From: an uncultured Gammaproteobacteria bacterium
GTDB lineage: Bacteria > Patescibacteriota > Patescibacteriia > Magasanikbacterales > GWA2-37-8
Direction of reading: 5' to 3'
NCBI GenBank assembly: GCA_964634875.1
Contig: CAZWKA010000003.1
Coordinates: 16,591-80,590, forward strand
DNA: 64,000 nt
Both the position numbers and the translations under genes were made by a program. Shown in pieces: positions 2,615 through 64,000 of this stretch. Under the pieces are notes generated by a model, which worked only from the letters and a program-made list of their open reading frames with translations, had not been told where the DNA came from and did no database searches. How positions within the stretch are numbered: the stretch's first letter is position 1; every line of letters starts with the position of its first letter.

Positions 2615-5572
2615 ATGATCTTACATCAAAATAAAAAGGAGGGGTCATTTATTCGTTTTCACAAAAGACATTTTCTTGTTGCGTTTATAGTTATGGTAGT
2701 GAGCACAGTATTTGTTACTGGGCTCGTTTTATTTTTTGTTAATTTATATCCACCTGGTTTGTCGCGCGCGGCTACTGTCGTTTGGACAGGTGAGACAGGG
2801 GATGGTTTGTGGCAAACGGCAGGCAACTGGAGCGGATCAGCTGTCCCGACTGCTTCTGATGATGTGACTATAGCTTCAACCAGTACTTTAATTACGGTGA
2901 CACTTTCATCGGGGCAAACGGCTAATTTTAGCACCCTAACTATTGGCGGGGAAACGTTATTGACTAATTTTATCCTCGAAGGGAATATTGGAACCGGTGG
3001 AAGTATTACAATTGATAACTCTGGTGTATTGGAGCAAAAGAATGCTGTTACTCAAACAATTAGTGGTACGCTGACTATAAAGGGCGGGGCAACTGGCGGT
3101 AAGTTAACACATACAGGAAATGCTTCTTCACAGAGTTATATTTTGAATTTTGTAGCTCAAGCTATTGATGTGCAAGCGGGTGGAGTCATTGATATTACGG
3201 GAAAAGGTTATGGAGATGCCAATTCTGGCCCCGGTCCTGGTATCGGTCAATCCAATGAGGGTGTTATTGAGTCAGGTGGTGGGGCGCACGGCGGTAATGG
3301 TGGAACGTATAATTTTTCACAAGGCGGCATTGGTTATTGTTTGGTAACCGATATTACAACCATGGGTTCGCCAGGTGGGCAGGCTGGTGGAGAGACTTTT
3401 AACGACCCAAGGCATGGTGCGGGAGGTGGGCTTGCTCTGCTGCGCTCGATCGCGACTACAACATTAAATGGTTCAATTATTGCTTCAGGTGCCGCAGGTA
3501 CTACTCTTGCAGACAACACGTATAGCGGAGGTGGGGGTGGAGGTGGTTTGCGAATTACTGCTGGCGGTGCGATTGCAGGTACTCCAACCGCAGTAACAGC
3601 TAACGGGGGCGCTGGTTTTGGTGAAGGTTCGGCCGCTGGCGGAGGTGGTTGTATTCAGTTGTCCTACCATACAACAAACTCAATTACCGCTCTTGGAGAC
3701 ATGGTAACGGTTGATGGCGGTGCTCAGTTTGTAGGTGCAAATCCGACTGCTGGTTTATTTTACGCTGCCCAAACTAATGCAGTCCCAACTACTACTGTTA
3801 CCAGCGTTGTTCAATCAACGACTTCCACAGTTACTTTTGTCGCCAGTGTCACTGATGTTGATTTAGACGTAACAAGCCTTGTGGTAGAACATTCGCTCGA
3901 CGGCGCAAACTGGTCGTCTTCTACGCTGGGTAGTGTTACCCCAAGCCAGGGGTCGGTCAGCACTTCAACCGGCCGTATTTCTGGTATTGCCACCGACACT
4001 GCTACTACGACACTAACAGCAGTTTGGAATATCGGGATCGACGCGCCGACAACAACAACCTCGACTGCCTACATGCGTTTTGTTCCAACCGACGGCGCAC
4101 TTACCGGCGCTGTGGCCACTTCGACAGTTTTTTCTATTGTAACGGTTCCCCCGAGTGATTTAAATATTACGAGCGTGACAGACCATGAAGCGAATTTTAC
4201 CTGGTCAACCCAGGATGTTTTTACAAGTTATGCGCTGCAAGATGTTGCTAATGCCGTTTCATCCGGATGGGTTACCGGGGATAGTCATCAGATTACTGAT
4301 TTAACCTGTGGAGTTGCATATACTTTTGCTATTAAAGGTAAAAGCAGTGCGGATGTTGAAACTGGTCTTTCCGCTAGTATTGCGACCACAACACTTAATT
4401 GTGGTCCAGCCTTTTCGGCGAGCGGGGGTGGTGGGGGTGGTGGAGCAAGTGATTCAGGAAGCTCTGCTCCAGCGCCGAGCCCAAGCACAGACGCGCCACA
4501 GCAACTGGTAACTGTACCTTTATTTTTACAACCACCGGTAACTCCTGAAGTGCTATTAAATGTACCTCTTACGCCCGTGCCGCAGGACAGGCTTTTGCAA
4601 CCGCTTACGGTTTTGCCGCCACCAACGACACCGTTGGTTCCAGACACCGTAGTATTGCCGCCACCGTTGCCTCCTCAGGAAGTGCAGTTGATTTTAAACC
4701 AGCAAGAACAAATAGCGCAAATCATTACCCAATCCGCCCAGGTCATTGCTCCTGTACTACAAGTAACCACGCCGGTAACGGTCGGTGCAGCGACGCACAG
4801 TGTAACGGTTTCCGCTGCTTCCGCATCGAGTATTACATTTGTTCTTCGTTCTAATCCAATTACCCTTACTCTACAGGCCGGTGAGCAGCGTGAGGCTGAT
4901 ACAGACGGGGATAGTGTGACAGATGTCTTGGTGTCATATAAAGGCTTGTTGGAAGGAAAACCGCTTTTGGCTTTAGCGCCGCTGATTAATCAGGATGAAG
5001 CTGTGGGTCCGTTTACCATCAATACCGGTGCCCTGCAGACAAAATCAACCGATGTGTTGCTTACCTTTGGTGTGAAGGATATTCGTTCGATAGAAATTTC
5101 TAATACACCAGATTTTGTTTCGAGCGTGCACTTTGTTGCTGCTTCTTCAACGCGCTGGAGGCTTCCTACTGAGGCTGGTGTCGCTACGGTGTATGCCCGT
5201 ATTTATAAAAATAATGATACGGTCGTTGGGGTGAGTGATAGTATCTTTGTCCGACCAGAAGCTTTGCCTAATTGGTCGGCTGTGATCCCGAAACCCGTTG
5301 CAACCTCCACCGTACCGGTACAAAAAGCGAAGCCAGTACCTGTGGTGTTTAAAACTCCCCTGAGAGCTGGTAGTGTGGGGAATGAAGTTCGCATGCTTCA
5401 AGTAATTCTTAAAGCGCAGGGGTTATTTCCCGTGCAGCAAGCCGTAACCGGTTACTTTGGTCAGTTTACGTACCAAGGGGTTGTCGCTCTGCAAAAGAAA
5501 AATTCCCTTACCCCTATCGGTCAGGTTGGGCCGCAGACGAGGGCACTTCTGAATGTTTTATCTGCTGAGTAA
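2615..5572 (+). CDS. large cell-surface protein with N-terminal TM anchor, Gly-rich beta-helix-like repeats, FN3-like segments, Pro-rich linker and C-terminal peptidoglycan-binding domain
   Basis: 985 aa. N-terminal hydrophobic helix, GGxGGxG runs and a PxxP-rich region. The C-terminal GNEVRMLQVILKAQG...GYFGQFTYQGVVALQK fits the PG_binding_1 pattern. Confidence 0.6.
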   Translation: MILHQNKKEGSFIRFHKRHFLVAFIVMVVSTVFVTGLVLFFVNLYPPGLSRAATVVWTGETGDGLWQTAGNWSGSAVPTASDDVTIASTSTLITVTLSSGQTANFSTLTIGGETLLTNFILEGNIGTGGSITIDNSGVLEQKNAVTQTISGTLTIKGGATGGKLTHTGNASSQSYILNFVAQAIDVQAGGVIDITGKGYGDANSGPGPGIGQSNEGVIESGGGAHGGNGGTYNFSQGGIGYCLVTDITTMGSPGGQAGGETFNDPRHGAGGGLALLRSIATTTLNGSIIASGAAGTTLADNTYSGGGGGGGLRITAGGAIAGTPTAVTANGGAGFGEGSAAGGGGCIQLSYHTTNSITALGDMVTVDGGAQFVGANPTAGLFYAAQTNAVPTTTVTSVVQSTTSTVTFVASVTDVDLDVTSLVVEHSLDGANWSSSTLGSVTPSQGSVSTSTGRISGIATDTATTTLTAVWNIGIDAPTTTTSTAYMRFVPTDGALTGAVATSTVFSIVTVPPSDLNITSVTDHEANFTWSTQDVFTSYALQDVANAVSSGWVTGDSHQITDLTCGVAYTFAIKGKSSADVETGLSASIATTTLNCGPAFSASGGGGGGGASDSGSSAPAPSPSTDAPQQLVTVPLFLQPPVTPEVLLNVPLTPVPQDRLLQPLTVLPPPTTPLVPDTVVLPPPLPPQEVQLILNQQEQIAQIITQSAQVIAPVLQVTTPVTVGAATHSVTVSAASASSITFVLRSNPITLTLQAGEQREADTDGDSVTDVLVSYKGLLEGKPLLALAPLINQDEAVGPFTINTGALQTKSTDVLLTFGVKDIRSIEISNTPDFVSSVHFVAASSTRWRLPTEAGVATVYARIYKNNDTVVGVSDSIFVRPEALPNWSAVIPKPVATSTVPVQKAKPVPVVFKTPLRAGSVGNEVRMLQVILKAQGLFPVQQAVTGYFGQFTYQGVVALQKKNSLTPIGQVGPQTRALLNVLSAE

Positions 5573-5573
5573 T

Positions 5574-5611
5574 AAAAAAATATCCACCTTGAGTAAGGTG
5601 GATATTTTTTT
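5574..5611 (+). terminator. rho-independent terminator
   Basis: Stem ATATCCACCTT gagt AAGGTGGATAT followed by TTTTTTT. Confidence 0.8.
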
Positions 5612-5681
5612 GATGCTCCACTTCGTCCTATCGCTCATACGAACTAATTCGTAGGAATGATAGGGTGGGCGAAGTGGGGTG

Positions 5682-5714
5682 GGGGCTCCGCGCGTTTTTG
5701 GCGCGCGGAGCCCC
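5682..5714. repeat. perfect 13-bp GC-rich hairpin at the left edge of a high-GC islet
   Basis: GGGGCTCCGCGCG-tttttgg-CGCGCGGAGCCCC. It is preceded by a second long imperfect inverted repeat at 5617-5680. Confidence 0.7.
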
Positions 5715-5726
5715 TGGATTGGCTTT

Positions 5727-6380
5727 CTAGCGGCGCCAGAAAGCCAGAAACATGAGGGCGAAGGGTGCGGTGCAGACCGCGCCGAGGAACACGAACGCGA
5801 CGAACCGTGCTCTCGGCGAGATCCGGCTGACGCGCCGGATGGCCTGGGTGCGGCGCTCCTGCTCGGGGATCAGCGTATATGGCTGCGTGCCGTTGCTGAT
5901 GGGGTGCCGCTGCGTGCCCTGCTCTGTGATGGGGAACAGGCCGGTCTCAGCCCCACGCAGAACCGCGAGCTGCATGGTTCCCTCTCTGGACAGGTCGAGT
6001 GTCGGGATCTCTTTGGTGTCGTCCTCGTCGCCCATGCTCTGCACCTCTTTGGTGGCGGTGAGCTGGCGCTCGAACGCGGCCAGGCGCAGGTTCAGCAGGG
6101 TCTTGTCCGGATCCTCCTCCAGTTCGTCAAGGAGGGGGGTGAGAGCCTGAAGCGGGGTGACAGACGAGGCCGGCGGCGGCACCTCAAGCGGCCGAGCCAA
6201 CAGTGTCAGCGCGTAGGCCTCCTGGTGGAAGCCGCGCGGGTTCGTGGGCGTACGCTCATCCCCGAAGAGAGGGGGTGTGCGGCTCGAGGGCGGGCTGTCG
6301 GCAGAGCTCTGCGGCGGGCACGACGGGTCAATCAGGGGCTTGGCGAAAAGGGGCGGAGTCAGACTGCTGTGCGTCTTCAT
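5727..6380 (-). CDS. proline-rich protein with C-terminal transmembrane tail anchor, encoded in a high-GC islet
   Basis: ATG at 6380 has GAGGT 6 nt upstream. The C-terminal stretch FVAFVFLGAVCTAPFALMFLAFW is hydrophobic. GC is visibly far above the flanks, and the opposite strand also shows long ORFs, as expected for GC-rich DNA. Confidence 0.45.
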   Translation of the reverse strand: MKTHSSLTPPLFAKPLIDPSCPPQSSADSPPSSRTPPLFGDERTPTNPRGFHQEAYALTLLARPLEVPPPASSVTPLQALTPLLDELEEDPDKTLLNLRLAAFERQLTATKEVQSMGDEDDTKEIPTLDLSREGTMQLAVLRGAETGLFPITEQGTQRHPISNGTQPYTLIPEQERRTQAIRRVSRISPRARFVAFVFLGAVCTAPFALMFLAFWRR

Positions 6381-6420
6381 GACTGTTACCTCGCTGGGTG
6401 GCAAAAAAGGTCGGGCATTG

Positions 6421-6469
6421 TAGCGGTGAAACAGTCTGATTAATAGCTTTATTAGACTGTTTCACCGCT
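6421..6469. repeat. 17-18 bp inverted repeat (hairpin) at the right edge of the high-GC islet
   Basis: AGCGGTGAAACAGTCTGAT ... ATTAGACTGTTTCACCGCT with one mismatch. Confidence 0.7.
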
Positions 6470-6685
6470 AGAACACTTTTTTAAGGAACAAAAAAACCTG
6501 CGGCTTTCGCCTACAGGATGCTCCATCCTAGCACATTTTTAGGGTTTTGTCAAGGGTGTTTTGGGGTATTTTGGCTAATTTTAGCTATTTTTATAGTTTT
6601 AGAGTAGTTCAAATACCACTATTTACTGTTGCGGGCAAACATTTTTAAGCAGTATCTTTTCTTGAGGCAAGAAGTTATTAGTGGT

Positions 6686-6710
6686 AAACTATAATTTCTA
6701 ATTATAGTTT
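6686..6710. promoter_or_regulatory. 10-bp perfect inverted repeat AAACTATAAT-N5-ATTATAGTTT immediately upstream of the J-domain gene start (candidate operator)
   Basis: Seen directly. Ends 9 bp before the ATG at 6719. Confidence 0.4.
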
Positions 6711-7722: not shown

Positions 7723-8160
7723 ATGCTTAACCGCGATCTCATCAGCACCCTGACCCTCACTATCAACGCACCGGTCGCCAAAGTCTGGGACGGCCTTACG
7801 AACCCCGCGATGATCAAACAATGGCTCTTTGGCACCGATACCAAAACCACCTGGGAACCAGGCAGCGACCTTATTTTTAGCGGCGAATGGAGTGGGCAGG
7901 CCTACGAAGACAAAGGCAAAGTCGTCGTGTTCGAGCCGGAAAAAGTTTTGGAATATACCTATTGGAGCGCTTTTTCCAAATTACCGGACGCGCCGGAAAA
8001 TTATAGCCGCGTTAGGTTTGTTTTGTCTGATAAGGGTGATATCACCGAAATGGTGGTAACGCAGACCGGGTTTACGGGTGAAGAAGCGAAGCAGCATTCC
8101 ATGGATAATTGGAGGAGTACGCTGGGGAAGATGAAGGAGTTGGTGGAGGAAAATAATTAG
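7723..8160 (+). CDS. SRPBCC-family (AHSA1/polyketide cyclase-like) protein
   Basis: 145 aa. The VAKVWDGLTNPAMIKQW ... VVFEPEKVLEYTYWS pattern is typical of the SRPBCC/Activator-of-Hsp90-ATPase fold. Confidence 0.65.
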   Translation: MLNRDLISTLTLTINAPVAKVWDGLTNPAMIKQWLFGTDTKTTWEPGSDLIFSGEWSGQAYEDKGKVVVFEPEKVLEYTYWSAFSKLPDAPENYSRVRFVLSDKGDITEMVVTQTGFTGEEAKQHSMDNWRSTLGKMKELVEENN

Positions 8161-17898: not shown

Positions 17899-17937
17899 AA
17901 AAAATACCCAAACTTTTTAAGTTTGGGTATTTTTTTG
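17899..17937. terminator. bidirectional terminator hairpin
   Basis: AAAATACCCAAAC-tttttaa-GTTTGGGTATTTTT. Confidence 0.75.
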
Positions 17938-18006
17938 TGGCCACGAGTGGGGTCGTTAGCGCGCACGCCTCGTGGATACGTGAGTGGGCAGGGGAAAGCG
18001 GTCGAG

Positions 18007-18435
18007 CTAGTTGAGGGGCTCGAGGGCGATCGTGACCCAGCGCTCGCTCTCGAGCTGCTGCTGCCGGGGCTGTCGTAGCCGCTCCTGGCTTAGCCGAAAC
18101 GAGGCACGCAGGAACGTCTCGAAGGCTGAGGCGCGTAGCGGGTTCATCTTGATGTAGTAGCACCGCCACCAGTTGGGGTTGGCTCGGTCGAAGGTGGTCG
18201 AACGGGTCGTCCGGCTCTTCTGGACCATGACGAGGATGCGACGCCCGGGACCCTTGTCGTCTTCCCGAACGAGCTCGCCTTCGTCGTCGATGCCGACGAA
18301 TTCCCTGAGGACGCGCAGAATGTCCTCGTGGAAGATGGAAACCTGGCCTGGCCACCGTGCCGCTTCTCCGTCGGAGAGCTGGTGGACCAGGATACCGGGC
18401 TCAGCCACCTCTTTACTCGCTGCTTCGATCATCAA
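18007..18435 (-). CDS. hypothetical protein encoded in a high-GC islet
   Basis: ATG at 18435 with AAGGAGG 5 nt upstream. 142 aa with no recognisable motif. GC visibly about 60% versus low-40s flanks. Confidence 0.4.
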   Translation of the reverse strand: MMIEAASKEVAEPGILVHQLSDGEAARWPGQVSIFHEDILRVLREFVGIDDEGELVREDDKGPGRRILVMVQKSRTTRSTTFDRANPNWWRCYYIKMNPLRASAFETFLRASFRLSQERLRQPRQQQLESERWVTIALEPLN

Positions 18436-18556
18436 GGCCTCCTTGGGGGTTGATAACGTGGCAGTTTATATAGCATGCCTGGTTTTGTCAATGATTAGAC
18501 CTGTCCAACAAAAAAAGACTATCGCAGAGACAGTCTTTTTGTTGGTTAAGACGTGG

Positions 18557-28012: not shown

Positions 28013-28041
28013 TTGACAAAACCCTTAAAAAGGGATAGAAT
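28013..28041 (+). promoter_or_regulatory. near-consensus sigma70 promoter TTGACA-N17-TAGAAT
   Basis: Seen directly. The -35 element sits in the loop of a 9-bp hairpin (TTTAAGGG...CCCTTAAA). Confidence 0.6.
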
Positions 28042-32973: not shown

Positions 32974-33465
32974 CTAGGTTAGGCCGAGAAGTCCGGCAAG
33001 GATATAGAGACCAAGTGCGACAGCGACACCGAGTAGCACAGCGTACAGCCTTGTCTGGCTTGGCATATGTTCAAACGGTGGCAGAATAACCTCTTCGGTG
33101 TTGTCTGCCGGATCGCGGGAGAGGGGCGGGATTGTCGGCGCCGTCGCCCGCTTGGTGAGCACTGTAGGTCGCATTGTCCGGGGAGGATAGATGGGTACCG
33201 GCACTGCCCCTAGTGGCCTCGTGTGCCTTTGGACTTCATAGACAGGGTCAGCATCGATGTTAGTCTGCCCAACTTCTACTTGAGGTGCTGGCGGGGGCGT
33301 AGGCAGGCCGAGGTAGTTGGCTTCGAGCACCGTGGGTTGCACCGGCAGTGCTGCGGGTGGTGGCTGGGGTGTCTCGCCAGGCCTGCCCAAGATGCGTTCG
33401 AGCAGGGTGGGCTGGTTACGCTTTGCGACCGGGGTAACTGGGGCTCGTGGTCTCAGTTTTGCCAT
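32974..33465 (-). CDS. proline-rich protein with C-terminal TM tail anchor, high-GC islet (paralog-like of 5727..6380)
   Basis: ATG at 33465 with GAGGA upstream. C-terminal LYAVLLGVAVALGLYILAGLLGLT. Pro-rich throughout. Shares the ..QRH..P..G.. segment and overall architecture with the 5.7-kb islet protein. Confidence 0.45.
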   Translation of the reverse strand: MAKLRPRAPVTPVAKRNQPTLLERILGRPGETPQPPPAALPVQPTVLEANYLGLPTPPPAPQVEVGQTNIDADPVYEVQRHTRPLGAVPVPIYPPRTMRPTVLTKRATAPTIPPLSRDPADNTEEVILPPFEHMPSQTRLYAVLLGVAVALGLYILAGLLGLT

Positions 33466-60630: not shown

Positions 60631-62091
60631 ATGACGCACGGCGACGTAATTATCCGTTTTGATAAGGTAACCTTTGGCTATAGCCATAACCGGCCGCTTC
60701 TTGAGGAGGCTAGTTTTTCGGTACGTGAAAATGCCAAAATTACAATCATGGGCCAAAACGGCGCTGGCAAAAGCACGATTTTTAAGATGATCACCCGGGA
60801 TTTGAAACCAGAAGAGGGTGCGGTACATACCGGAATTGACGCGAGTATTGCGATCGCTACTCAGGTCATGAAGGCTGAAAACCTAGATAAAACCATTGAG
60901 GAATTTTTTGCCCAAGTTTTTGATAAAAAAATGTATGACTTGCCAAAGCGGATTAAGTCTGTTTTGGATGTCGTCCACCTGAGCGCGCCCCTTGATAAAA
61001 AAATCCGCCAGTTTAGCGGCGGCCAGCAGGCTCGCCTTCTTTTGGCCTACGCCCTTATCCAGCAGCCAGATATTTTGCTCCTGGACGAACCAACCAATAA
61101 TTTGGATGCAGACGGTATTGCGCATCTGACGCAATTTTTGATCGAATATCCTAAGACTTGTTTGGTTATTTCACACGATGCTAATTTTTTGAATTCGTTC
61201 ACCCACGGTGTTTTATACCTTGATTCCTATACGCATAAAGTTGAACAGTATGTGGGTGACTATTATGAAGTGTTAGGTGAAATCGAAGCGCAGATTGAGC
61301 GTGAACGGATGAAAAACGCACAGCTTAAAAAGAGTATTCAGGATCGTAAAGATAAAATTAACTTCTTCTCCCACAAAGGCGGTAAGATGCGCGCCTTGGC
61401 AAGTAAATTGAAAGACCAGGTAGAAGAAGCTGAAGAAGAAATGGTTGATGAGCGCCAGGAAGATAAGACGATCAACGAATTTACTATTCCGGCGCAGACC
61501 GATATTGTCGGGCCGGTCGTGACGATCGATTCGGTGGGTATTATGGTTGGCCATGAGCCCGTTCGCAAGACGCTTGCCACACCACTTGAGGTGCGTAAAA
61601 AACAACGGTTAATCATTAAAGGGCCGAACGGTATTGGTAAGAGTACCTTTTTAGCAGCTCTCGCAAGCGGTGAAGAAGCGGGCGCAACTATCGCACCGGG
61701 TGCGCGCGTGGGATATTACCGGCAGGATTTTTCAGGGCTTGATTTTGATAAGACTGCGTACCGGGCGCTTGAAGAAATGATGGACCGCCCGTGGAACCAA
61801 GAAATTTACGCGACGGCTGCCCAGTTTTTATTGTCAGCGGATACGCTCAAAAATAAAGTGGGGTCACTGAGTGAAGGACAGAAAGGTTTGCTCTGTTATG
61901 CCCGATTTGTTTTACAAAAACCAGGTCTCCTTATTATGGACGAGCCAACTAACCATATTAATTTCCGTCATTTACCAATTATTGCGAAAGCCTTGGATCG
62001 ATTTGAAGGGGCGGTAATTGTGGTTAGTCATGCGCCGGAGTTTGTGGATGAGATGAAGTTTGACCAGACGCTTGATTTGGGGGCTTTGTAA
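60631..62091 (+). CDS. ABC-F family ATPase (tandem ABC domains, EttA/Uup-like)
   Basis: Two Walker A boxes (GQNGAGKST, GPNGIGKST) and two LSGGQ signatures, joined by a charged linker. Confidence 0.85.
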   Translation: MTHGDVIIRFDKVTFGYSHNRPLLEEASFSVRENAKITIMGQNGAGKSTIFKMITRDLKPEEGAVHTGIDASIAIATQVMKAENLDKTIEEFFAQVFDKKMYDLPKRIKSVLDVVHLSAPLDKKIRQFSGGQQARLLLAYALIQQPDILLLDEPTNNLDADGIAHLTQFLIEYPKTCLVISHDANFLNSFTHGVLYLDSYTHKVEQYVGDYYEVLGEIEAQIERERMKNAQLKKSIQDRKDKINFFSHKGGKMRALASKLKDQVEEAEEEMVDERQEDKTINEFTIPAQTDIVGPVVTIDSVGIMVGHEPVRKTLATPLEVRKKQRLIIKGPNGIGKSTFLAALASGEEAGATIAPGARVGYYRQDFSGLDFDKTAYRALEEMMDRPWNQEIYATAAQFLLSADTLKNKVGSLSEGQKGLLCYARFVLQKPGLLIMDEPTNHINFRHLPIIAKALDRFEGAVIVVSHAPEFVDEMKFDQTLDLGAL

Positions 62092-62107
62092 AAAATATTT
62101 AGAAAAA

Positions 62108-62135
62108 CAGGCTTAGGCCTGTTTTTTATTTTTGA
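62108..62135. terminator. bidirectional terminator
   Basis: AAACAGGC-ttag-GCCTGTTTTTTATTTTT. Confidence 0.75.
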
Positions 62136-62370
62136 TCAGTTTTATTTTTTCTTGCCGCGATAATTTTTTGATGGCAATTTCGCGCTTGAGGGCGGGGGAG
62201 AGGGTGCGGAAGTTTTCTTGGTGGACGAGTTTGACGGGGCGCCGAGCGCGAGTGTATTTGGCGCCGGTTTTTCCTTCGTTATGGTTTTTAATTCGTTTTT
62301 CGACATCGTTCGTATAGCCGGTGTAGAGGGTTTTGTCGGAGCATTCCAAAATGTAAACTGTGTATTTCAT
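62113..62370 (-). CDS. GIY-YIG nuclease family protein (YhbQ/UPF0213-type)
   Basis: YTVYILECSDKTLYTGYTNDVEKRIKNHN. Confidence 0.8.
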   Translation of the reverse strand: MKYTVYILECSDKTLYTGYTNDVEKRIKNHNEGKTGAKYTRARRPVKLVHQENFRTLSPALKREIAIKKLSRQEKIKLIKNKKQA

Positions 62371-62740
62371 ATTTGTTTATTTTAACATTTAAGACGTCGA
62401 AGTGTATAGCCTGCTCGTTACCTTTTTGGCAGCAAAAAGGTAACCGAAAAACTGCCCGAGCTGCTATCCGCTTCAGCACCACTTCGGATTCGTCGTCGCT
62501 CACCGGCCAATGTTCCTGCGCCGGAACTGTGGCCAGTGTGCCTCTGGGCACCGCTTCTCCTCATCTCGAAGCGGAGCTTCATCGGCTCGGGGCTCGGGGG
62601 AGTGGCGAAGTGAGCGTTGGTCGTGTGAGTGATTGTTTTTTAAAAACTAAAAAACAGCCTTTTTGAAAGCTGTTTTAGTAGGTGCCCCAGAGGTACGTGG
62701 GGCGGCGCTGCACGAAGGTGTGCGAGTGGGGTTCGGTTGG

Positions 62741-63681
62741 TCAGTAGTCCCGCAGGTCGCGGGTTTCGCGTCGCCAGATGCGGCGCTGGTCGCTCCGGTG
62801 CTGCCCGCTCGTGAGGCAGCCATGAAGCAGGTTGCGTCTGCTCCAGACGAAGCTCCGGAACTCTTGCTTCGTCATCTTCATGGACCGACGGAGCTTGATG
62901 ATGTTTCGGTGCCGGACTTCGTGGCCGCGGTTGTAGGACAGGTTGATGTGCTTCTGCTCTTCATCCTTCGAAGACGAATCAGAAGCGATCTTCTTGTCCC
63001 ACTTCGCTTCGAGGAGCTCGAGAGGGGTCAGCTCATCGAGCGGGTGCTTGAGGTACCGCTTCTCGAGCCACCGGACTTCGCGAGTCGATCCCTCTGCCTC
63101 CTTGCGGTGGCTGAGGTAGGCTCGCTGTTCCGCCTTGGTGAGGAGCTCGTGCTCCTTGTCCGTGATGCGCCCGGCGCACTTCAGCTGGTCGGCCTTGACC
63201 ATGGTGAGTCCGCCGATCGTTGGCCAGTCACCCCCTTGGATCTTGGCGAGTAGATCCTGGACTTCGGCGAAGGCTTCGTCGAGCACCTCGGCCCAGCGTG
63301 CCGCTTCCTCGGCCTGACGCTTGCGACTCGCTTCCTCGGCCGCTCGCTTGCGGTCTGCCTGTGCCGCCGTGATCGCGGGGTAGGCGGCTGTGGCTTGTTC
63401 GAGCCAGGTTGTAGTGGGCTGGTAGCTGTCGAGCACGCGGTTGATGAACTCCATGATCTCGTGGTCCACGTACTCGAGCTGCTTGAGCTCCTCGATCTTC
63501 CACTTCAGCTGCTGTGCTTCACGCCCGAGCCGGCGGCGCTCCAGTTCCCCGGAGCGCTCCAGTTCCATGCGCTGTTCAGCGGCCAGGCGCGCCTGTTCAG
63601 CATGCTTCGACCGCATGGTGTAGCTGCGGCCGCGGCTGAAGTAGGGTTGAGGTTCCATGACGATCTCGATCTTGCGTCCCA
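62741..63681 (-). CDS. coiled-coil-rich hypothetical protein encoded in a high-GC islet
   Basis: ATG at 63681 with GGAGAGA upstream. About 60% GC by eye. The long Arg/Glu/Ala-rich helical region suggests a coiled-coil. No catalytic motif recognised. Confidence 0.4.
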
Positions 63682-64000
63682 TGTGTCTCTCCTTGTGTGT
63701 ACGGTTGCCCGCACTCACGAGGATTGACTGGTGGGAATGGGTCAGGTCGTTCGTGCGGTTGTTCAAACAAAAAAGACTAACGTTGGAAACTCATTGGTCG
63801 CCTCCTTGTAAAAGTGCTCGTCGTACCGGACTATCCCGGTTGTTTCGACGGTTTTTGCTCTGTGGTTAGCCAAAGGGAAAAAACCGCTAAAACAAGGCAC
63901 GGAACAAGCCAGTATAGCACAAAAAACGGGTTTTGTCAACCCCCTTTAGGAAGCTCCTGTTACAGTTTTATTGAAGAAATTCGTTGATTTTTTGTTCGAT

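Follow-up and report, generated by a model that had tools for sequence, protein, structure and literature searches.

A GC-rich orphan gene in a strain-variable slot of a Candidatus Magasanikbacteria chromosome: a probable case of a horizontally acquired, self-contained single-gene transcription unit

Mobility signatures are common in genomic islets but not obligatory. The morons of lambdoid phages are autonomous promoter-gene-terminator units of deviant GC content located between phage genes, while an integron cassette consists of a promoterless ORF and an attC site, with the R''/R' core consensus RYYYAAC / GTTRRRY, and is found in an array next to intI. The recombinase sites that flank dif/pdif modules and some other cassettes are 28 bp long (11-6-11), and subterminal hairpins occur in IS200/IS605-type and MITE elements. 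In Patescibacteria, hundreds of genomic islands and single-gene transfers have been described (PMC12455944). Here we describe islet F, approximately 1.3 kb (1.3-1.6 kb) of DNA of foreign composition with one orphan gene, situated between two conserved genes of a Candidatus Magasanikbacteria genome (CPR/Patescibacteria) in the 64,000-nucleotide stretch of DNA that was analyzed (the window). Islet F was probably acquired horizontally as a self-contained transcription unit with a single gene, and the intergenic chromosomal slot that it occupies varies between strains. It is one more instance of a streamlined CPR genome gaining a gene at a hotspot of its chromosome, and the finding reveals neither a new RNA class nor a new mobile element.

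The GC content over 62400-63700 is 0.56-0.67 (200-nt windows) compared with a mean of 0.467 for the window as a whole, in agreement with the original prediction that the composition is unlike that of the neighboring genes. The predicted ORF at 62741..63681 was correct in its length of 313 aa and in its 62741 end, whereas the gene is located on the minus strand and its ATG is at 63682 (Table 1). Because of this orientation, the GC-rich non-coding stretch that had been thought to precede the ORF is found downstream of it, past the terminator and before the start of the gene for a GIY-YIG protein. The start codon is supported by the two distant homologues described below, since their N-termini both align from residue 1, and the consensus Shine-Dalgarno sequence reported earlier is present. 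The codon usage of the orphan ORF is that of a genuine gene of GC-rich origin, with GC1/2/3 values of 0.65/0.42/0.81 compared with 0.45-0.60/0.33-0.37/0.47-0.56 in native genes.

Table 1. Features of islet F and its borders, in window coordinates
Feature	Position	Strand	Description
Promoter-like site of GIY-YIG gene	62379..62408	-	TATACA, 18 nt, TAAAAT, with TG; 9/12 matches; predicted
Perfect palindrome/hairpin	62417..62444		GTTACCTTTTTG-GCAG-CAAAAAGGTAAC; 12-bp stem, 4-nt loop; at GC-rich/AT-rich junction
GC-rich non-coding tail	62445..62636		GC 0.615; between terminator and palindrome; nested inverted repeats
Intrinsic terminator of islet gene	62651..62676	-	11-pair stem, 4-nt loop, T-tract; predicted
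3' UTR of orphan gene	62677..62740	-	GC 0.70; contains CCCCACTCGCACA
Orphan gene, 313 aa	62741..63682 (stop included)	-	ATG at 63682, TGA at 62741-62743
Shine-Dalgarno sequence of orphan gene	within 63687-63694	-	AGGAG, 6 nt ahead of ATG
Half-site-like repeat of palindrome arm	63770..63782	+	AAAAAGACTAACG; other edge of GC-rich DNA; overlaps mini-ORF stop
Mini upstream ORF	63777..63794	-	ATG AGT TTC CAA CGT TAG (MSFQR*); predicted, read from sequence
Shine-Dalgarno sequence of mini-ORF	63801-63807	-	AAGGAGG, ahead of mini-ORF ATG
5'-leader imperfect hairpin	63840..63895	-	26-nt arms, 77% complementary, 4-nt loop
Sigma-70-type promoter of islet gene	63911..63939	-	TTGACA, 17 nt, TATACT, TG before -10; 11/12 consensus matches; predicted

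In total, approximately 15 billion proteins were covered by the searches, and the orphan protein has only two distant relatives among them, P0002 (E 6e-5) and P0003 (E 1e-4), both identified by exhaustive HMMER among 1.84 billion representatives; in a word-seeded search of 5.8 billion clusters the protein matched only itself. No further homologues were identified with a profile of the three-member family or in scans of IMG/VR and of JGI metagenomes. By tblastn, no match was obtained in phage (50,697 records) and plasmid collections, and none in 163 related loci outside the loci of the family itself. Rather than a lineage-typical conserved protein, the gene encodes one that neither the two closest relatives nor ~160 other Patescibacteria loci contain. 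P0002 and P0003 are likewise encoded in GC3-rich DNA (0.70-0.77), and one of the two genes adjoins DNA of 40% GC. The phage structural, scaffold or HNH-like folds that had been suggested were not recovered in Pfam, PHROGs or Foldseek: nothing was found in Pfam or PHROGs below E 0.03, and the best Foldseek hit of the model in the PDB had an E-value of 1.9, which is meaningless at such low model confidence. PADLOC and NCBIfam gave no match, and the best hit of a PDB profile search (E 0.04) was an unrelated helical protein. AlphaFold predicts an all-helical protein with low confidence (pLDDT 56 for the sequence alone and 60 with the three-sequence alignment), with helices at residues 23-86 and 91-150 (pLDDT about 60-88). 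The coiled-coil character originally proposed is only partly borne out: long helices are predicted, and the best heptad a/d hydrophobic score, 0.65, is reached by 23% of shuffles in a crude home-made test and is not significant. The protein contains 61 K+R and 52 D+E, of which 19 K+R and 6 D+E are located in the last 70 residues. We infer a soluble, helical product rich in charged residues, whose basic C-terminal end would bind either nucleic acid or a partner, and an accessory (moron-like) role outside core metabolism.

The gene next to the non-coding end of the islet encodes a GIY-YIG protein of 85 aa (PF01541, E 2.8e-17). It is of the common stand-alone type, as originally stated, and adjoins the ABC-F gene at the same place in relatives without the islet (82-89% amino acid identity). 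Being conserved in these relatives, it is a resident syntenic core gene outside the islet, and the earlier suggestion that it hints at a mobile element was not borne out. The -10 of its promoter-like site ends 8 nt before the ATG, and the predicted mRNA is therefore probably leaderless. Homology to the two closest genomes, L002 and L003, covers ligA, ABC-F and GIY-YIG and ends at window position 62373; the AT-rich DNA at 62371-62416 (GC 0.33) has no counterpart in L002 or L003. The window, L002 and L003 are about equidistant (82-84% nucleotide identity in ABC-F), and the contents of the slot differ in all three, since islet F is found here, L002 has 62 bp between GIY-YIG and its homologue of p146 (the name used here for the gene on the far side of the islet), and L003 carries a methyltransferase gene of native GC between GIY-YIG and p146. 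The p146 of the window is 41% identical to the L002 and L003 versions, as compared with 96% for ABC-F and 82-89% for GIY-YIG. A GC-rich HD-domain gene near the slot (GC3 0.63-0.66) is common to L002 and L003. The host was assigned to Magasanikbacteria from the relatives of its ABC-F protein, and no closer relative of it was found in JGI metagenomes, where the best ABC-F identity was 83%. Between 60000 and 64410 no integrase, transposase or tRNA was identified, and no clear att site or target-site duplication was found flanking the islet.

The extended -35 motif of the islet promoter, TTGACAAAACC, occurs exactly at four sites in the window, three ahead of GC-rich islets and one ahead of a native gene (28013). 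The leader (63670-63905) folds with -77.4 kcal/mol (z = -4.2 compared with shuffles), gave no Rfam match, and contains an imperfect hairpin as well as a predicted mini-ORF with its own Shine-Dalgarno sequence. A similar layout is seen at the P0002 locus (L082), where a promoter is followed by AGGAGG, ATG AGA ACG TAG, 114 nt and the main ATG, while the homologue locus L083 has an 18-codon upstream ORF with GGAGG. The arrangement of promoter, strong Shine-Dalgarno sequence and tiny ORF is common to two of the three family members, and homology between the leader of the window and those of L082 or L083 was not significant by shuffling. The orphan protein and its relatives define a very rare protein family with three members among ~15 billion proteins, each with an upstream mini-ORF. 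At the other end of the gene, the terminator predicted at ~62660-62690 is present with 11 pairs and a T-tract, only its position (62651-62676) and its strand (minus) being new. That the promoter, terminator and mini-ORF signals are used is inferred from consensus predictions. The 3' UTR with its CCCCACTCGCACA resembles the one behind the unrelated methyltransferase gene in the same slot of L003 (GAACCCCACCCGAACA). The P0003 locus also has a similar 3' end, with a local alignment score of 31 that is higher than in all 200 shuffles. In addition, a 39-bp block across the terminator (about 62637-62675) matches L003 7780-7818 at 92% identity and directly abuts the GIY-YIG start there. The sequence CCCAC[TC]CG was considered as a general pre-terminator element of the lineage and rejected, as beyond the window and L003 its occurrence is only sporadic.

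As an acquired unit, islet F would be read from the minus strand in the order promoter (63939-63911), leader of ~220 nt with a mini-ORF of five codons, gene (63682-62741), 3' UTR and terminator (62676-62651). The coding DNA would stem from a source of roughly 62-65% GC (GC3 0.81), and the cargo appears to have arrived recently, because its coding DNA shows no drift towards the host composition. For the tail (62445-62636), the likeliest interpretation is non-coding passenger DNA, or the remains of a decayed cassette, drawn from the same gene pool; it would now act as a spacer ahead of the GIY-YIG gene. The inserted terminator would sever GIY-YIG from upstream transcription, leaving the gene's own promoter (62408-62379) to produce what is probably a leaderless mRNA. 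The palindrome (62417-62444) would mark the compositional junction at approximately -60 of the GIY-YIG promoter, a protein-binding site and a recombination scar both being candidates. A single recent import of the whole of 62445-63760 is too simple, because the AT-rich terminator block amid the GC-rich DNA is 92% identical in L003, which lacks the orphan gene, and because a short segment of the tail is similar to the spacer of L002. The 3' UTR, the terminator and perhaps the tail may thus be an older landing pad whose cargo was exchanged. No donor of the islet DNA was identified in the collections searched.

The tail contains inverted repeats at 62455-62486/62567-62598 and at 62551-62557/62568-62574, the latter being the predicted 7-bp stem in which CCGCTTC pairs with GAAGCGG. 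The earlier description of 62400-62660 as non-coding was confirmed by the absence of codon-position GC periodicity in any frame; in 62400-62640 these values are 0.51-0.63 everywhere in all six frames, and stops are found in all minus-strand and two of the three plus-strand frames. The open plus frame (62373..62666, a 97-aa ORF) lacks codon periodicity and was rejected as implausible. A 23-nt piece of the tail (62591-62613) resembles the 62-bp L002 spacer, with a score that is reached by 7 of 300 shuffles. An alignment of the tail with the 3' flank at P0002 did not exceed shuffles, and the idea of homology between the two was rejected. No relatives of the tail were found by blastn-short in the related loci, where only the terminator was matched (L003), and a DNA search of phage and plasmid collections gave no match.

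The hairpin at the compositional junction was originally given an 11-bp stem; it is indeed perfect, with a stem of 12 bp and a loop of 4 nt, and its center lies ~60 bp ahead of the GIY-YIG ATG. Seven places in the window have a perfect stem of 11 bp or more, compared with 0.13 expected from Markov simulations. Four of the other six are A/T-flanked terminators and two (5682-5714 and 6686-6710) are not, while the palindrome at 62417-62444 has a T-tail on neither strand. It does not fit the integron R''/R' core sequences. The pattern AAAAAG-N1-3-TAACG, designed post hoc, occurs in the window only at 62427..62416 (minus strand) and 63770-63782 (plus strand), with at least two matches in 3 of 100 shuffles. 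CGTTACCTTTTT (62416-62427) and AAAAAGACTAACG (63770-63782) form an imperfect inverted pair, likewise under a post hoc pattern, and no target-site duplication was seen beside them. Two more GC3-rich islets were identified in the window, islet A (about 5560-6553) and 17937-18491, both with a GC3 of 0.81-0.84 and a promoter of the TTGACAAAACC type, and no homologues of their ORFs were found. The 3' regions of all three islets contain a C-rich motif of the CCCCACTCG / CACTTCGCC type, for which the post hoc CCCCACTCG had at least two matches in 5 of 100 shuffles. The sequence CCA(A)CGTTA, common to islet F and islet 17937-18491, occurs at about chance frequency and was dropped. Isolated GC3-rich ORFs are frequent in the ~160 related loci, and un-ameliorated orphan genes of this kind recur in Magasanikbacteria and related genomes. 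Their common source, if identified, might hint at the partners (hosts, viruses or plasmids) of these uncultured bacteria.

The structured ncRNA that had been proposed for 62400-62660, either as a small RNA gene or as a cis-element in the orphan gene or the GIY-YIG mRNA, would explain why the clearly non-coding stretch, with its nested inverted repeats and perfect 12-bp hairpin, folds far better than dinucleotide shuffles (62380-62690; z -4.8 with -125.5 kcal/mol on the plus strand and z -4.0 on the minus strand). However, both strands fold about equally well, as expected of DNA palindromes, which points to inverted repeats at the DNA level and not to a strand-specific RNA. For 62400-62640 no promoter was identified on the plus strand, where the terminator is weak, while on the minus strand the stretch sits behind an intrinsic terminator and ahead of the GIY-YIG promoter. 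Rfam gave nothing for the tail at gathering thresholds or at E<=10, the only families window-wide being tRNAs, and the best scores on 62300-64000 were 10-17 bits compared with gathering scores of 40-100. A single-sequence covariance model of the tail found nothing in 2 Mb of related loci, including those of P0002 and P0003, and the stretch is not a housekeeping RNA, because it is absent from the two closest genomes. We regard an RNA gene here as unlikely. Doubtful, too, is the idea that the GC-rich DNA (about 62416-63782) is a non-autonomous cassette, bounded by the hairpin and the half-site and moved in trans by a recombinase (transposon, dif/Xer-type or integron-like), with the three islets forming one cassette system. 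It would account for a palindrome of 11-6-11 / 12-4-12 layout exactly at the compositional junction, for the related inverted half-site at the other junction, in a pattern present only twice in 64 kb, and for the GC signature, promoter type and 3' motif that the three islets have in common. CCTTTTT+G-N3-16-GGTAAC, a further post hoc pattern, is limited in 2 Mb (window and loci) to the palindrome and the leader of islet A, and the L003 slot has a different gene with a homologous 3' UTR and terminator, as if the cargo had been swapped. These motif patterns were, however, all designed post hoc and are each only weakly significant alone (3/100 and 5/100 shuffles), the TTGACAAAACC promoter is also found ahead of a native gene, and each of the islets comes with a promoter, which integron cassettes do not. 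Genes for a transposase, integrase or Xer protein are absent in and beside islet F, and no target-site duplication or second complete palindrome was found. The window has one copy each of the palindrome and the tail, neither of which occurs in the related loci, and the palindrome, searched as an exact pattern with free loop, is absent from viral contigs. What was left of the originally suggested terminal region of a mobile element is thus a hint, the weak half-site pair. An undescribed system of self-contained GC-rich single-gene cassettes (TTGACAAAACC promoter, orphan ORF with GC3 >0.8, C-rich 3' motif, terminator) would go further still. In such a system the three islets would come from an unsampled GC-rich pool (virus, plasmid or CPR host cell) and be exchanged at fixed intergenic landing pads via the palindrome, half-sites and a recombinase encoded elsewhere, the tail being a functional recombination substrate or RNA; we consider this a long shot.

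The abrupt change in composition might also suggest that reads of a GC-rich organism were joined chimerically into the CPR contig, and no single Logan contig spans 62427-62446 with both flanks. The right junction, from the islet through leader and promoter to p146, is nevertheless contiguous in an independent Logan assembly of the same sequencing run, SRR12762304 (62427-64000 and 410 bp past the window), and a second Logan contig of this run spans 61425-62446. Both contigs break within the palindrome, and their 20-nt overlap agrees with the window sequence. Moreover, the flanking GIY-YIG and p146 genes are neighbors in both close relatives, the islet terminator is 92% identical to that of L003 at the same site, and the GC-rich ORF lies behind a host-type promoter and Shine-Dalgarno sequences, all of which makes an assembly artefact extremely improbable. 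The host-type promoter and terminator would also suit a native, fast-evolving gene of the lineage whose high GC reflects amino acid composition or a local mutational bias, and the HD-domain gene of L002 and L003 (GC3 0.63-0.66) illustrates that GC-rich genes can persist. However, amino acid content cannot account for a GC3 of 0.81, the gene is absent at the syntenic site in both close relatives and in all other loci, and its only relatives sit in other GC-rich DNA. Had the gene been an old resident, drift towards the host GC3 would be expected at an ABC-F nucleotide identity of 82-84%, and a native origin is very unlikely.

Read as an acquired transcription unit, islet F shares individual traits with several described systems. 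Its neighbor resembles the small stand-alone GIY-YIG proteins (PF01541, about 85-90 aa) with its 85 aa and is resident and not part of the islet, which sets it apart from homing endonucleases. In contrast to integron cassettes, the ORF has a strong predicted promoter of its own, and neither an array nor an integrase was found. The 28-bp palindrome at one edge and the related half-site at the other recall dif/pdif modules, IS200/IS605-type and MITE elements, whereas islet F is single-copy, with only one complete site and no recombinase or transposase, and no target duplication was found. The arms of the palindrome are perfectly symmetric, unlike XerC/XerD sites, and islet F has neither a transposase domain in its orphan protein, as an autonomous insertion sequence would, nor the multiple copies of a non-autonomous element such as a MITE, its palindrome and tail being single in the window and absent from 2 Mb of related loci. 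Like phage morons, islet F is a lone gene whose GC deviates, with a predicted promoter and terminator of its own, apparently added between pre-existing genes; these are cellular genes (ligA, ABC-F, GIY-YIG, p146) and not a prophage. Islet F matches no PHROG family, and neither the 50,697 phage records nor IMG/VR contained a match. From genomic islets it differs in its size, with one gene in about 1.3-1.6 kb, in lacking an integrase, tRNA and direct repeats, in having no identifiable donor, and in the host-like terminator block, common to L003, amid foreign DNA. Nonetheless, islet F has in common with genomic islets, including those of Patescibacteria (PMC12455944), an atypical base and codon composition, an orphan cargo, and a presence that varies among close relatives at a fixed site flanked by core genes, where the cargo differs.

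Islet F, the GC-rich DNA of ~1.3 kb that carries the gene for a 313-aa orphan protein (P0001), is real: a self-contained unit with one orphan gene, acquired horizontally and sitting in the variable intergenic slot between a GIY-YIG gene and the gene p146. From ~62445 to ~63760 the GC content is 0.56-0.67, compared with a window average of 46.7%. The three codon positions of the ORF have GC contents of 0.65, 0.42 and 0.81, respectively, as is typical of genuine genes from GC-rich genomes; GC3 of the neighboring ABC-F, ligA and GIY-YIG genes is 0.47-0.56. The ORF of the original prediction is present, with an end coordinate that was one off (the true ATG is at 63682). The gene runs on the minus strand, so that the GC-rich non-coding stretch described as preceding it in fact lies 3', past the terminator. 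This stretch, here termed the tail, showed no codon-position GC periodicity in any of the six frames (0.51-0.63 at every position), and stops interrupt five of them; the tail is therefore non-coding, or decayed past recognition. Two independent Logan contigs of run SRR12762304 reproduce the assembly. One (L001) covers 62427-64000 and extends 410 bp deeper into p146, and the other (L164) covers 61425-62446; their 20-nt overlap falls within the hairpin. In view of these contigs and of the synteny of the flanking genes, a chimeric assembly is very unlikely.

Features of islet F, its surroundings and further GC-rich ORFs (window positions unless a locus or contig is named)
Feature	Position	Strand	Remarks
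p146	L002 7821-8345; L003 8749-9147; L001 66-443 (window 63968 onward)		No Pfam family
p146 stop	63968-63970	-	Gene mostly beyond window, read in L001; upstream of islet ORF
Islet F promoter TTGACA-17-TATACT	63939-63911	-	Predicted; 11/12 consensus matches
Leader, ~220 nt	Between promoter and 313-aa ORF	-	Folds with z = -4.2
Leader hairpin	63895-63840	-	26-nt arms
Mini-ORF ATGAGTTTCCAACGTTAG	63794-63777	-	Strong AAGGAGG just before
Islet F ORF	ATG 63682, TGA 62741-62743	-	313 aa; AGGAG 6 nt upstream
3' UTR, 64 nt	Between ORF and terminator	-	GC-rich
Intrinsic terminator of islet F gene	62676-62651	-	Predicted
GC-rich tail, 190 nt	62636-62445		Beyond terminator; GC 0.615
Stem CCGCTTC/GAAGCGG	62551-62557 and 62568-62574		In tail
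Perfect palindrome GTTACCTTTTTG-GCAG-CAAAAAGGTAAC	62444-62417		Between tail and AT-rich DNA
AT-rich DNA, 46 nt	Between palindrome and GIY-YIG gene		Holds promoter-like site
Promoter-like site of GIY-YIG gene	62408-62379	-	-10 ends 8 nt before ATG
GIY-YIG gene	62370-62113	-	
Islet A	5560-6553; ORF 5727-6380	-	Up to 0.69 GC
Islet A promoter TTGACAAAACCC	6553	-	
Islet A leader hairpin	6418-6473	-	26-nt arms
18k islet	17937-18491; ORF 18007-18432	-	TTGACAAAACC promoter, AAGGAGG, 141 aa
Example GC3-rich ORFs	L161 1207-2034; L090 14181-14642; L103 4446-5448		
Example GC3-rich ORFs	L028 3592-4887; L065 2988-3692 and 12137-13345		

Searches with the ABC-F protein led to Candidatus Magasanikbacteria and other Patescibacteria, the closest genomes being those of loci L002 and L003 (ABC-F 96% amino acid identity). 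The window, L002, and L003 are about equidistant (ABC-F 82-84% nucleotide identity), and no closer host relative was found in the JGI metagenome collection, where the best ABC-F match was 83%. DNA homology to both loci spans ligA, ABC-F, and GIY-YIG, and the GIY-YIG start codon (window 62373) is precisely where high similarity breaks off. The GIY-YIG gene matches PF01541 (E 2.8e-17) and is a resident syntenic gene outside the islet. Beyond it, the window carries islet F, as against a native-GC gene for a methyltransferase-like protein of 255 aa in L003 (7898-8665, minus strand) and only 62 bp in front of the p146 homologue in L002. Identity of the window p146 to its counterparts in L002 and L003 is only 41%, compared with 82-96% for the genes on the other side; those two counterparts share 83% DNA identity. 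Three different slot contents and a diverged p146 thus mark the space right of the GIY-YIG gene as a hotspot of recombination and integration.

The GIY-YIG mRNA is predicted to be leaderless in the window (62379-62370) and in L003 (~7765-7785), a -10-like hexamer ending 6-8 nt before the ATG in both genomes and no Shine-Dalgarno sequence being present. Just beyond p146, L002 (8303-9570) and L003 (9233-10036) contain a GC-richer HD-domain gene (PF13023; GC3 0.63-0.66) with 71% nucleotide identity between the two, and L002 has in addition a 125-aa ORF with a GC3 of 0.83. The whole neighborhood is a flexible region. In another locus (L005, 7520-7830), a tRNA gene directly downstream of ABC-F is followed by two tandem ~85-bp copies, each comprising the tRNA 3' end and flank, which look like repeated att-type scars.

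A 39-bp block across the islet F terminator (~62637-62675) has a counterpart with 92% identity at L003 7780-7818. There, the block serves the methyltransferase gene, with the GIY-YIG start directly adjoining. The methyltransferase gene and islet F have homologous GC-rich 3' UTRs and terminators, and a 3' UTR motif next to the block is also common to both (GAACCCCACTCGCACA in the window, GAACCCCACCCGAACA in L003). With block and motif in common, the window differs from L003 in two ways: another gene is present upstream of the block, and an extra 250 bp, consisting of the tail, the hairpin, and an AT-rich promoter piece, downstream of it. Similarity to the islet 3' UTR and terminator was likewise found at the 3' end of the locus encoding P0003, a distant homologue of the orphan protein (score 31, above 200/200 shuffles), and 23 nt of the tail (62591-62613) are similar to the L002 spacer, with a score reached by 7/300 shuffles. 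On the simplest reading of these sequences, the slot has a partly conserved 3' landing pad and exchanged cargo, and the present cargo appears to be recent because its GC3 is un-ameliorated.

Among 5.8 billion protein clusters, the islet F protein matches nothing but itself. When 1.84 billion representatives were searched exhaustively with HMMER, P0002 (254 aa, E 6e-5) and P0003 (184 aa, E 1e-4) emerged as distant relatives; a three-member profile gave no further ones, nor did scans of IMG/VR, JGI metagenomes, phage records, and plasmids. All three members have the N-terminal segment RGRSYT..HAE.AR..AE..ELERSGEL.RR.L, and a C-terminal RRxWRRExR is common to P0001 and P0002. The DNA that encodes P0002 and P0003 is GC3-rich in both cases (0.70-0.77). 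The P0003 gene comes after a GC3-rich gene whose product resembles the RNA-polymerase alpha-CTD (PF03118, E 1e-15), and the GC-rich segment of P0003 abuts 40%-GC DNA. P0002 is encoded near a tRNA-Ser gene, and its leader has the layout seen in the window: promoter, AGGAGG, ATG AGA ACG TAG, and 114 nt to the main ORF. The 5' end of this tRNA-Ser(GCT) gene has an exact 18-nt copy 110 nt upstream (L082, 1333-1350 and 1443-1534).

The AlphaFold model of the orphan protein, of low confidence (pLDDT 56-60), is all-helical (helices ~23-86 and 91-150). Charged residues make up 36% of the protein, and the C-terminal 70 residues are strongly basic (19 K+R vs. 6 D+E). The coiled-coil label of the original prediction is not justified on a crude heptad test, which was not significant; nor is a phage scaffold or HNH assignment justified, as family libraries and a PDB sequence search gave no credible match and Foldseek with the low-confidence model found nothing (best E 1.9). 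The protein can fairly be described as helical and highly charged, with a basic tail.

The tail had also been suggested to be a structured ncRNA. The region 62380-62690 does fold better than shuffles, but on both strands (z -4.8 and -4.0); the tail contains inverted repeats (62455-62486/62567-62598, with nested stems), and since such repeats at the DNA level produce two-strand folding, the folding singles out no RNA strand. The Rfam check returned no family for the tail, at gathering score or at E<=10. No plus-strand promoter was found, and on the minus strand the tail sits between a terminator and the next promoter. Neither a covariance model in 2 Mb of Patescibacteria loci, including those of P0002 and P0003 (L082 and L083), nor blastn against phages and plasmids gave a relative of the tail. 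The ncRNA suggestion is not supported and is at most a remote possibility.

No transposase, integrase, or tRNA was found at islet F, nor is any target duplication visible. The window has perfect stems of 11 bp or more at seven sites, with 0.13 expected; the palindrome at 62444-62417 is one of them and lacks a T-tail, unlike four of the rest, which are terminators flanked by A/T. Its outer arm holds one of only two occurrences of AAAAAG-N1-3-TAACG in 64 kb (at least two matches in 3/100 shuffles), the other being inverted at 63770-63782, at the other edge of the GC-rich DNA. Outside the palindrome, the related string CCTTTTTTG...GGTAAC is confined, across 2 Mb, to the islet A leader. Islet F could conceivably be part of a palindrome-bounded cassette system, but the case for this consists of post hoc motifs: both patterns were designed after inspection of the sequence and therefore count as leads only.

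In our working model of the self-contained unit, the islet F gene would be an accessory, moron-like gene, expressed from a promoter of its own and controlled through the leader and the mini-ORF. Its product would be a helical protein whose basic tail binds nucleic acid or a partner. The non-coding tail may be passenger or decayed cassette DNA, and the palindrome, at about -60 of the leaderless GIY-YIG promoter, could bind a protein or be a scar of recombination.

The window holds two more islets with the same signature, islet A (GC3 0.84) and the 18k islet (GC3 0.81), each with its own TTGACAAAACC-type promoter and terminator. Neither protein has a protein-family match, and that of the 18k islet has zero relatives in 5.8 billion protein clusters. 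Since this promoter motif drives a native gene at 28013 as well, it is a host promoter type, not a cassette hallmark. The islet A product is a proline-rich protein of 217 aa with a C-terminal hydrophobic anchor and no Pfam or PHROG match; its 3' UTR contains a perfect 13-bp GC hairpin (5682-5714), followed by the terminator (5574-5611). Right at this terminator ends a plus-strand gene (2615-5572); its 985-aa product, probably a surface protein, combines a membrane anchor at the N-terminus with repeats rich in Gly/Thr/Ser and a Pro-rich linker. The 18k islet 3' UTR holds CCCCACTCG, as does islet F. A GC-rich (0.64) gene at 32974-33465 (minus strand) encodes a 163-aa proline-rich, C-terminally anchored protein without a family match; with a GC3 of only 0.59, it belongs to a compositional class apart from islets A, 18k, and F.

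Isolated ORFs with a GC3 of 0.75-0.94 are frequent in genomes of 39-53% GC (~160 Patescibacteria loci). They are mutually unrelated by blastp, and most have a strong AAGGAGG-type ribosome-binding site. Embedded isolated GC3-rich ORFs are a general feature of the group, and in Patescibacteria hundreds of genomic islands and single-gene transfers, accounting for up to 13% of genome length, have been described (PMC12455944).
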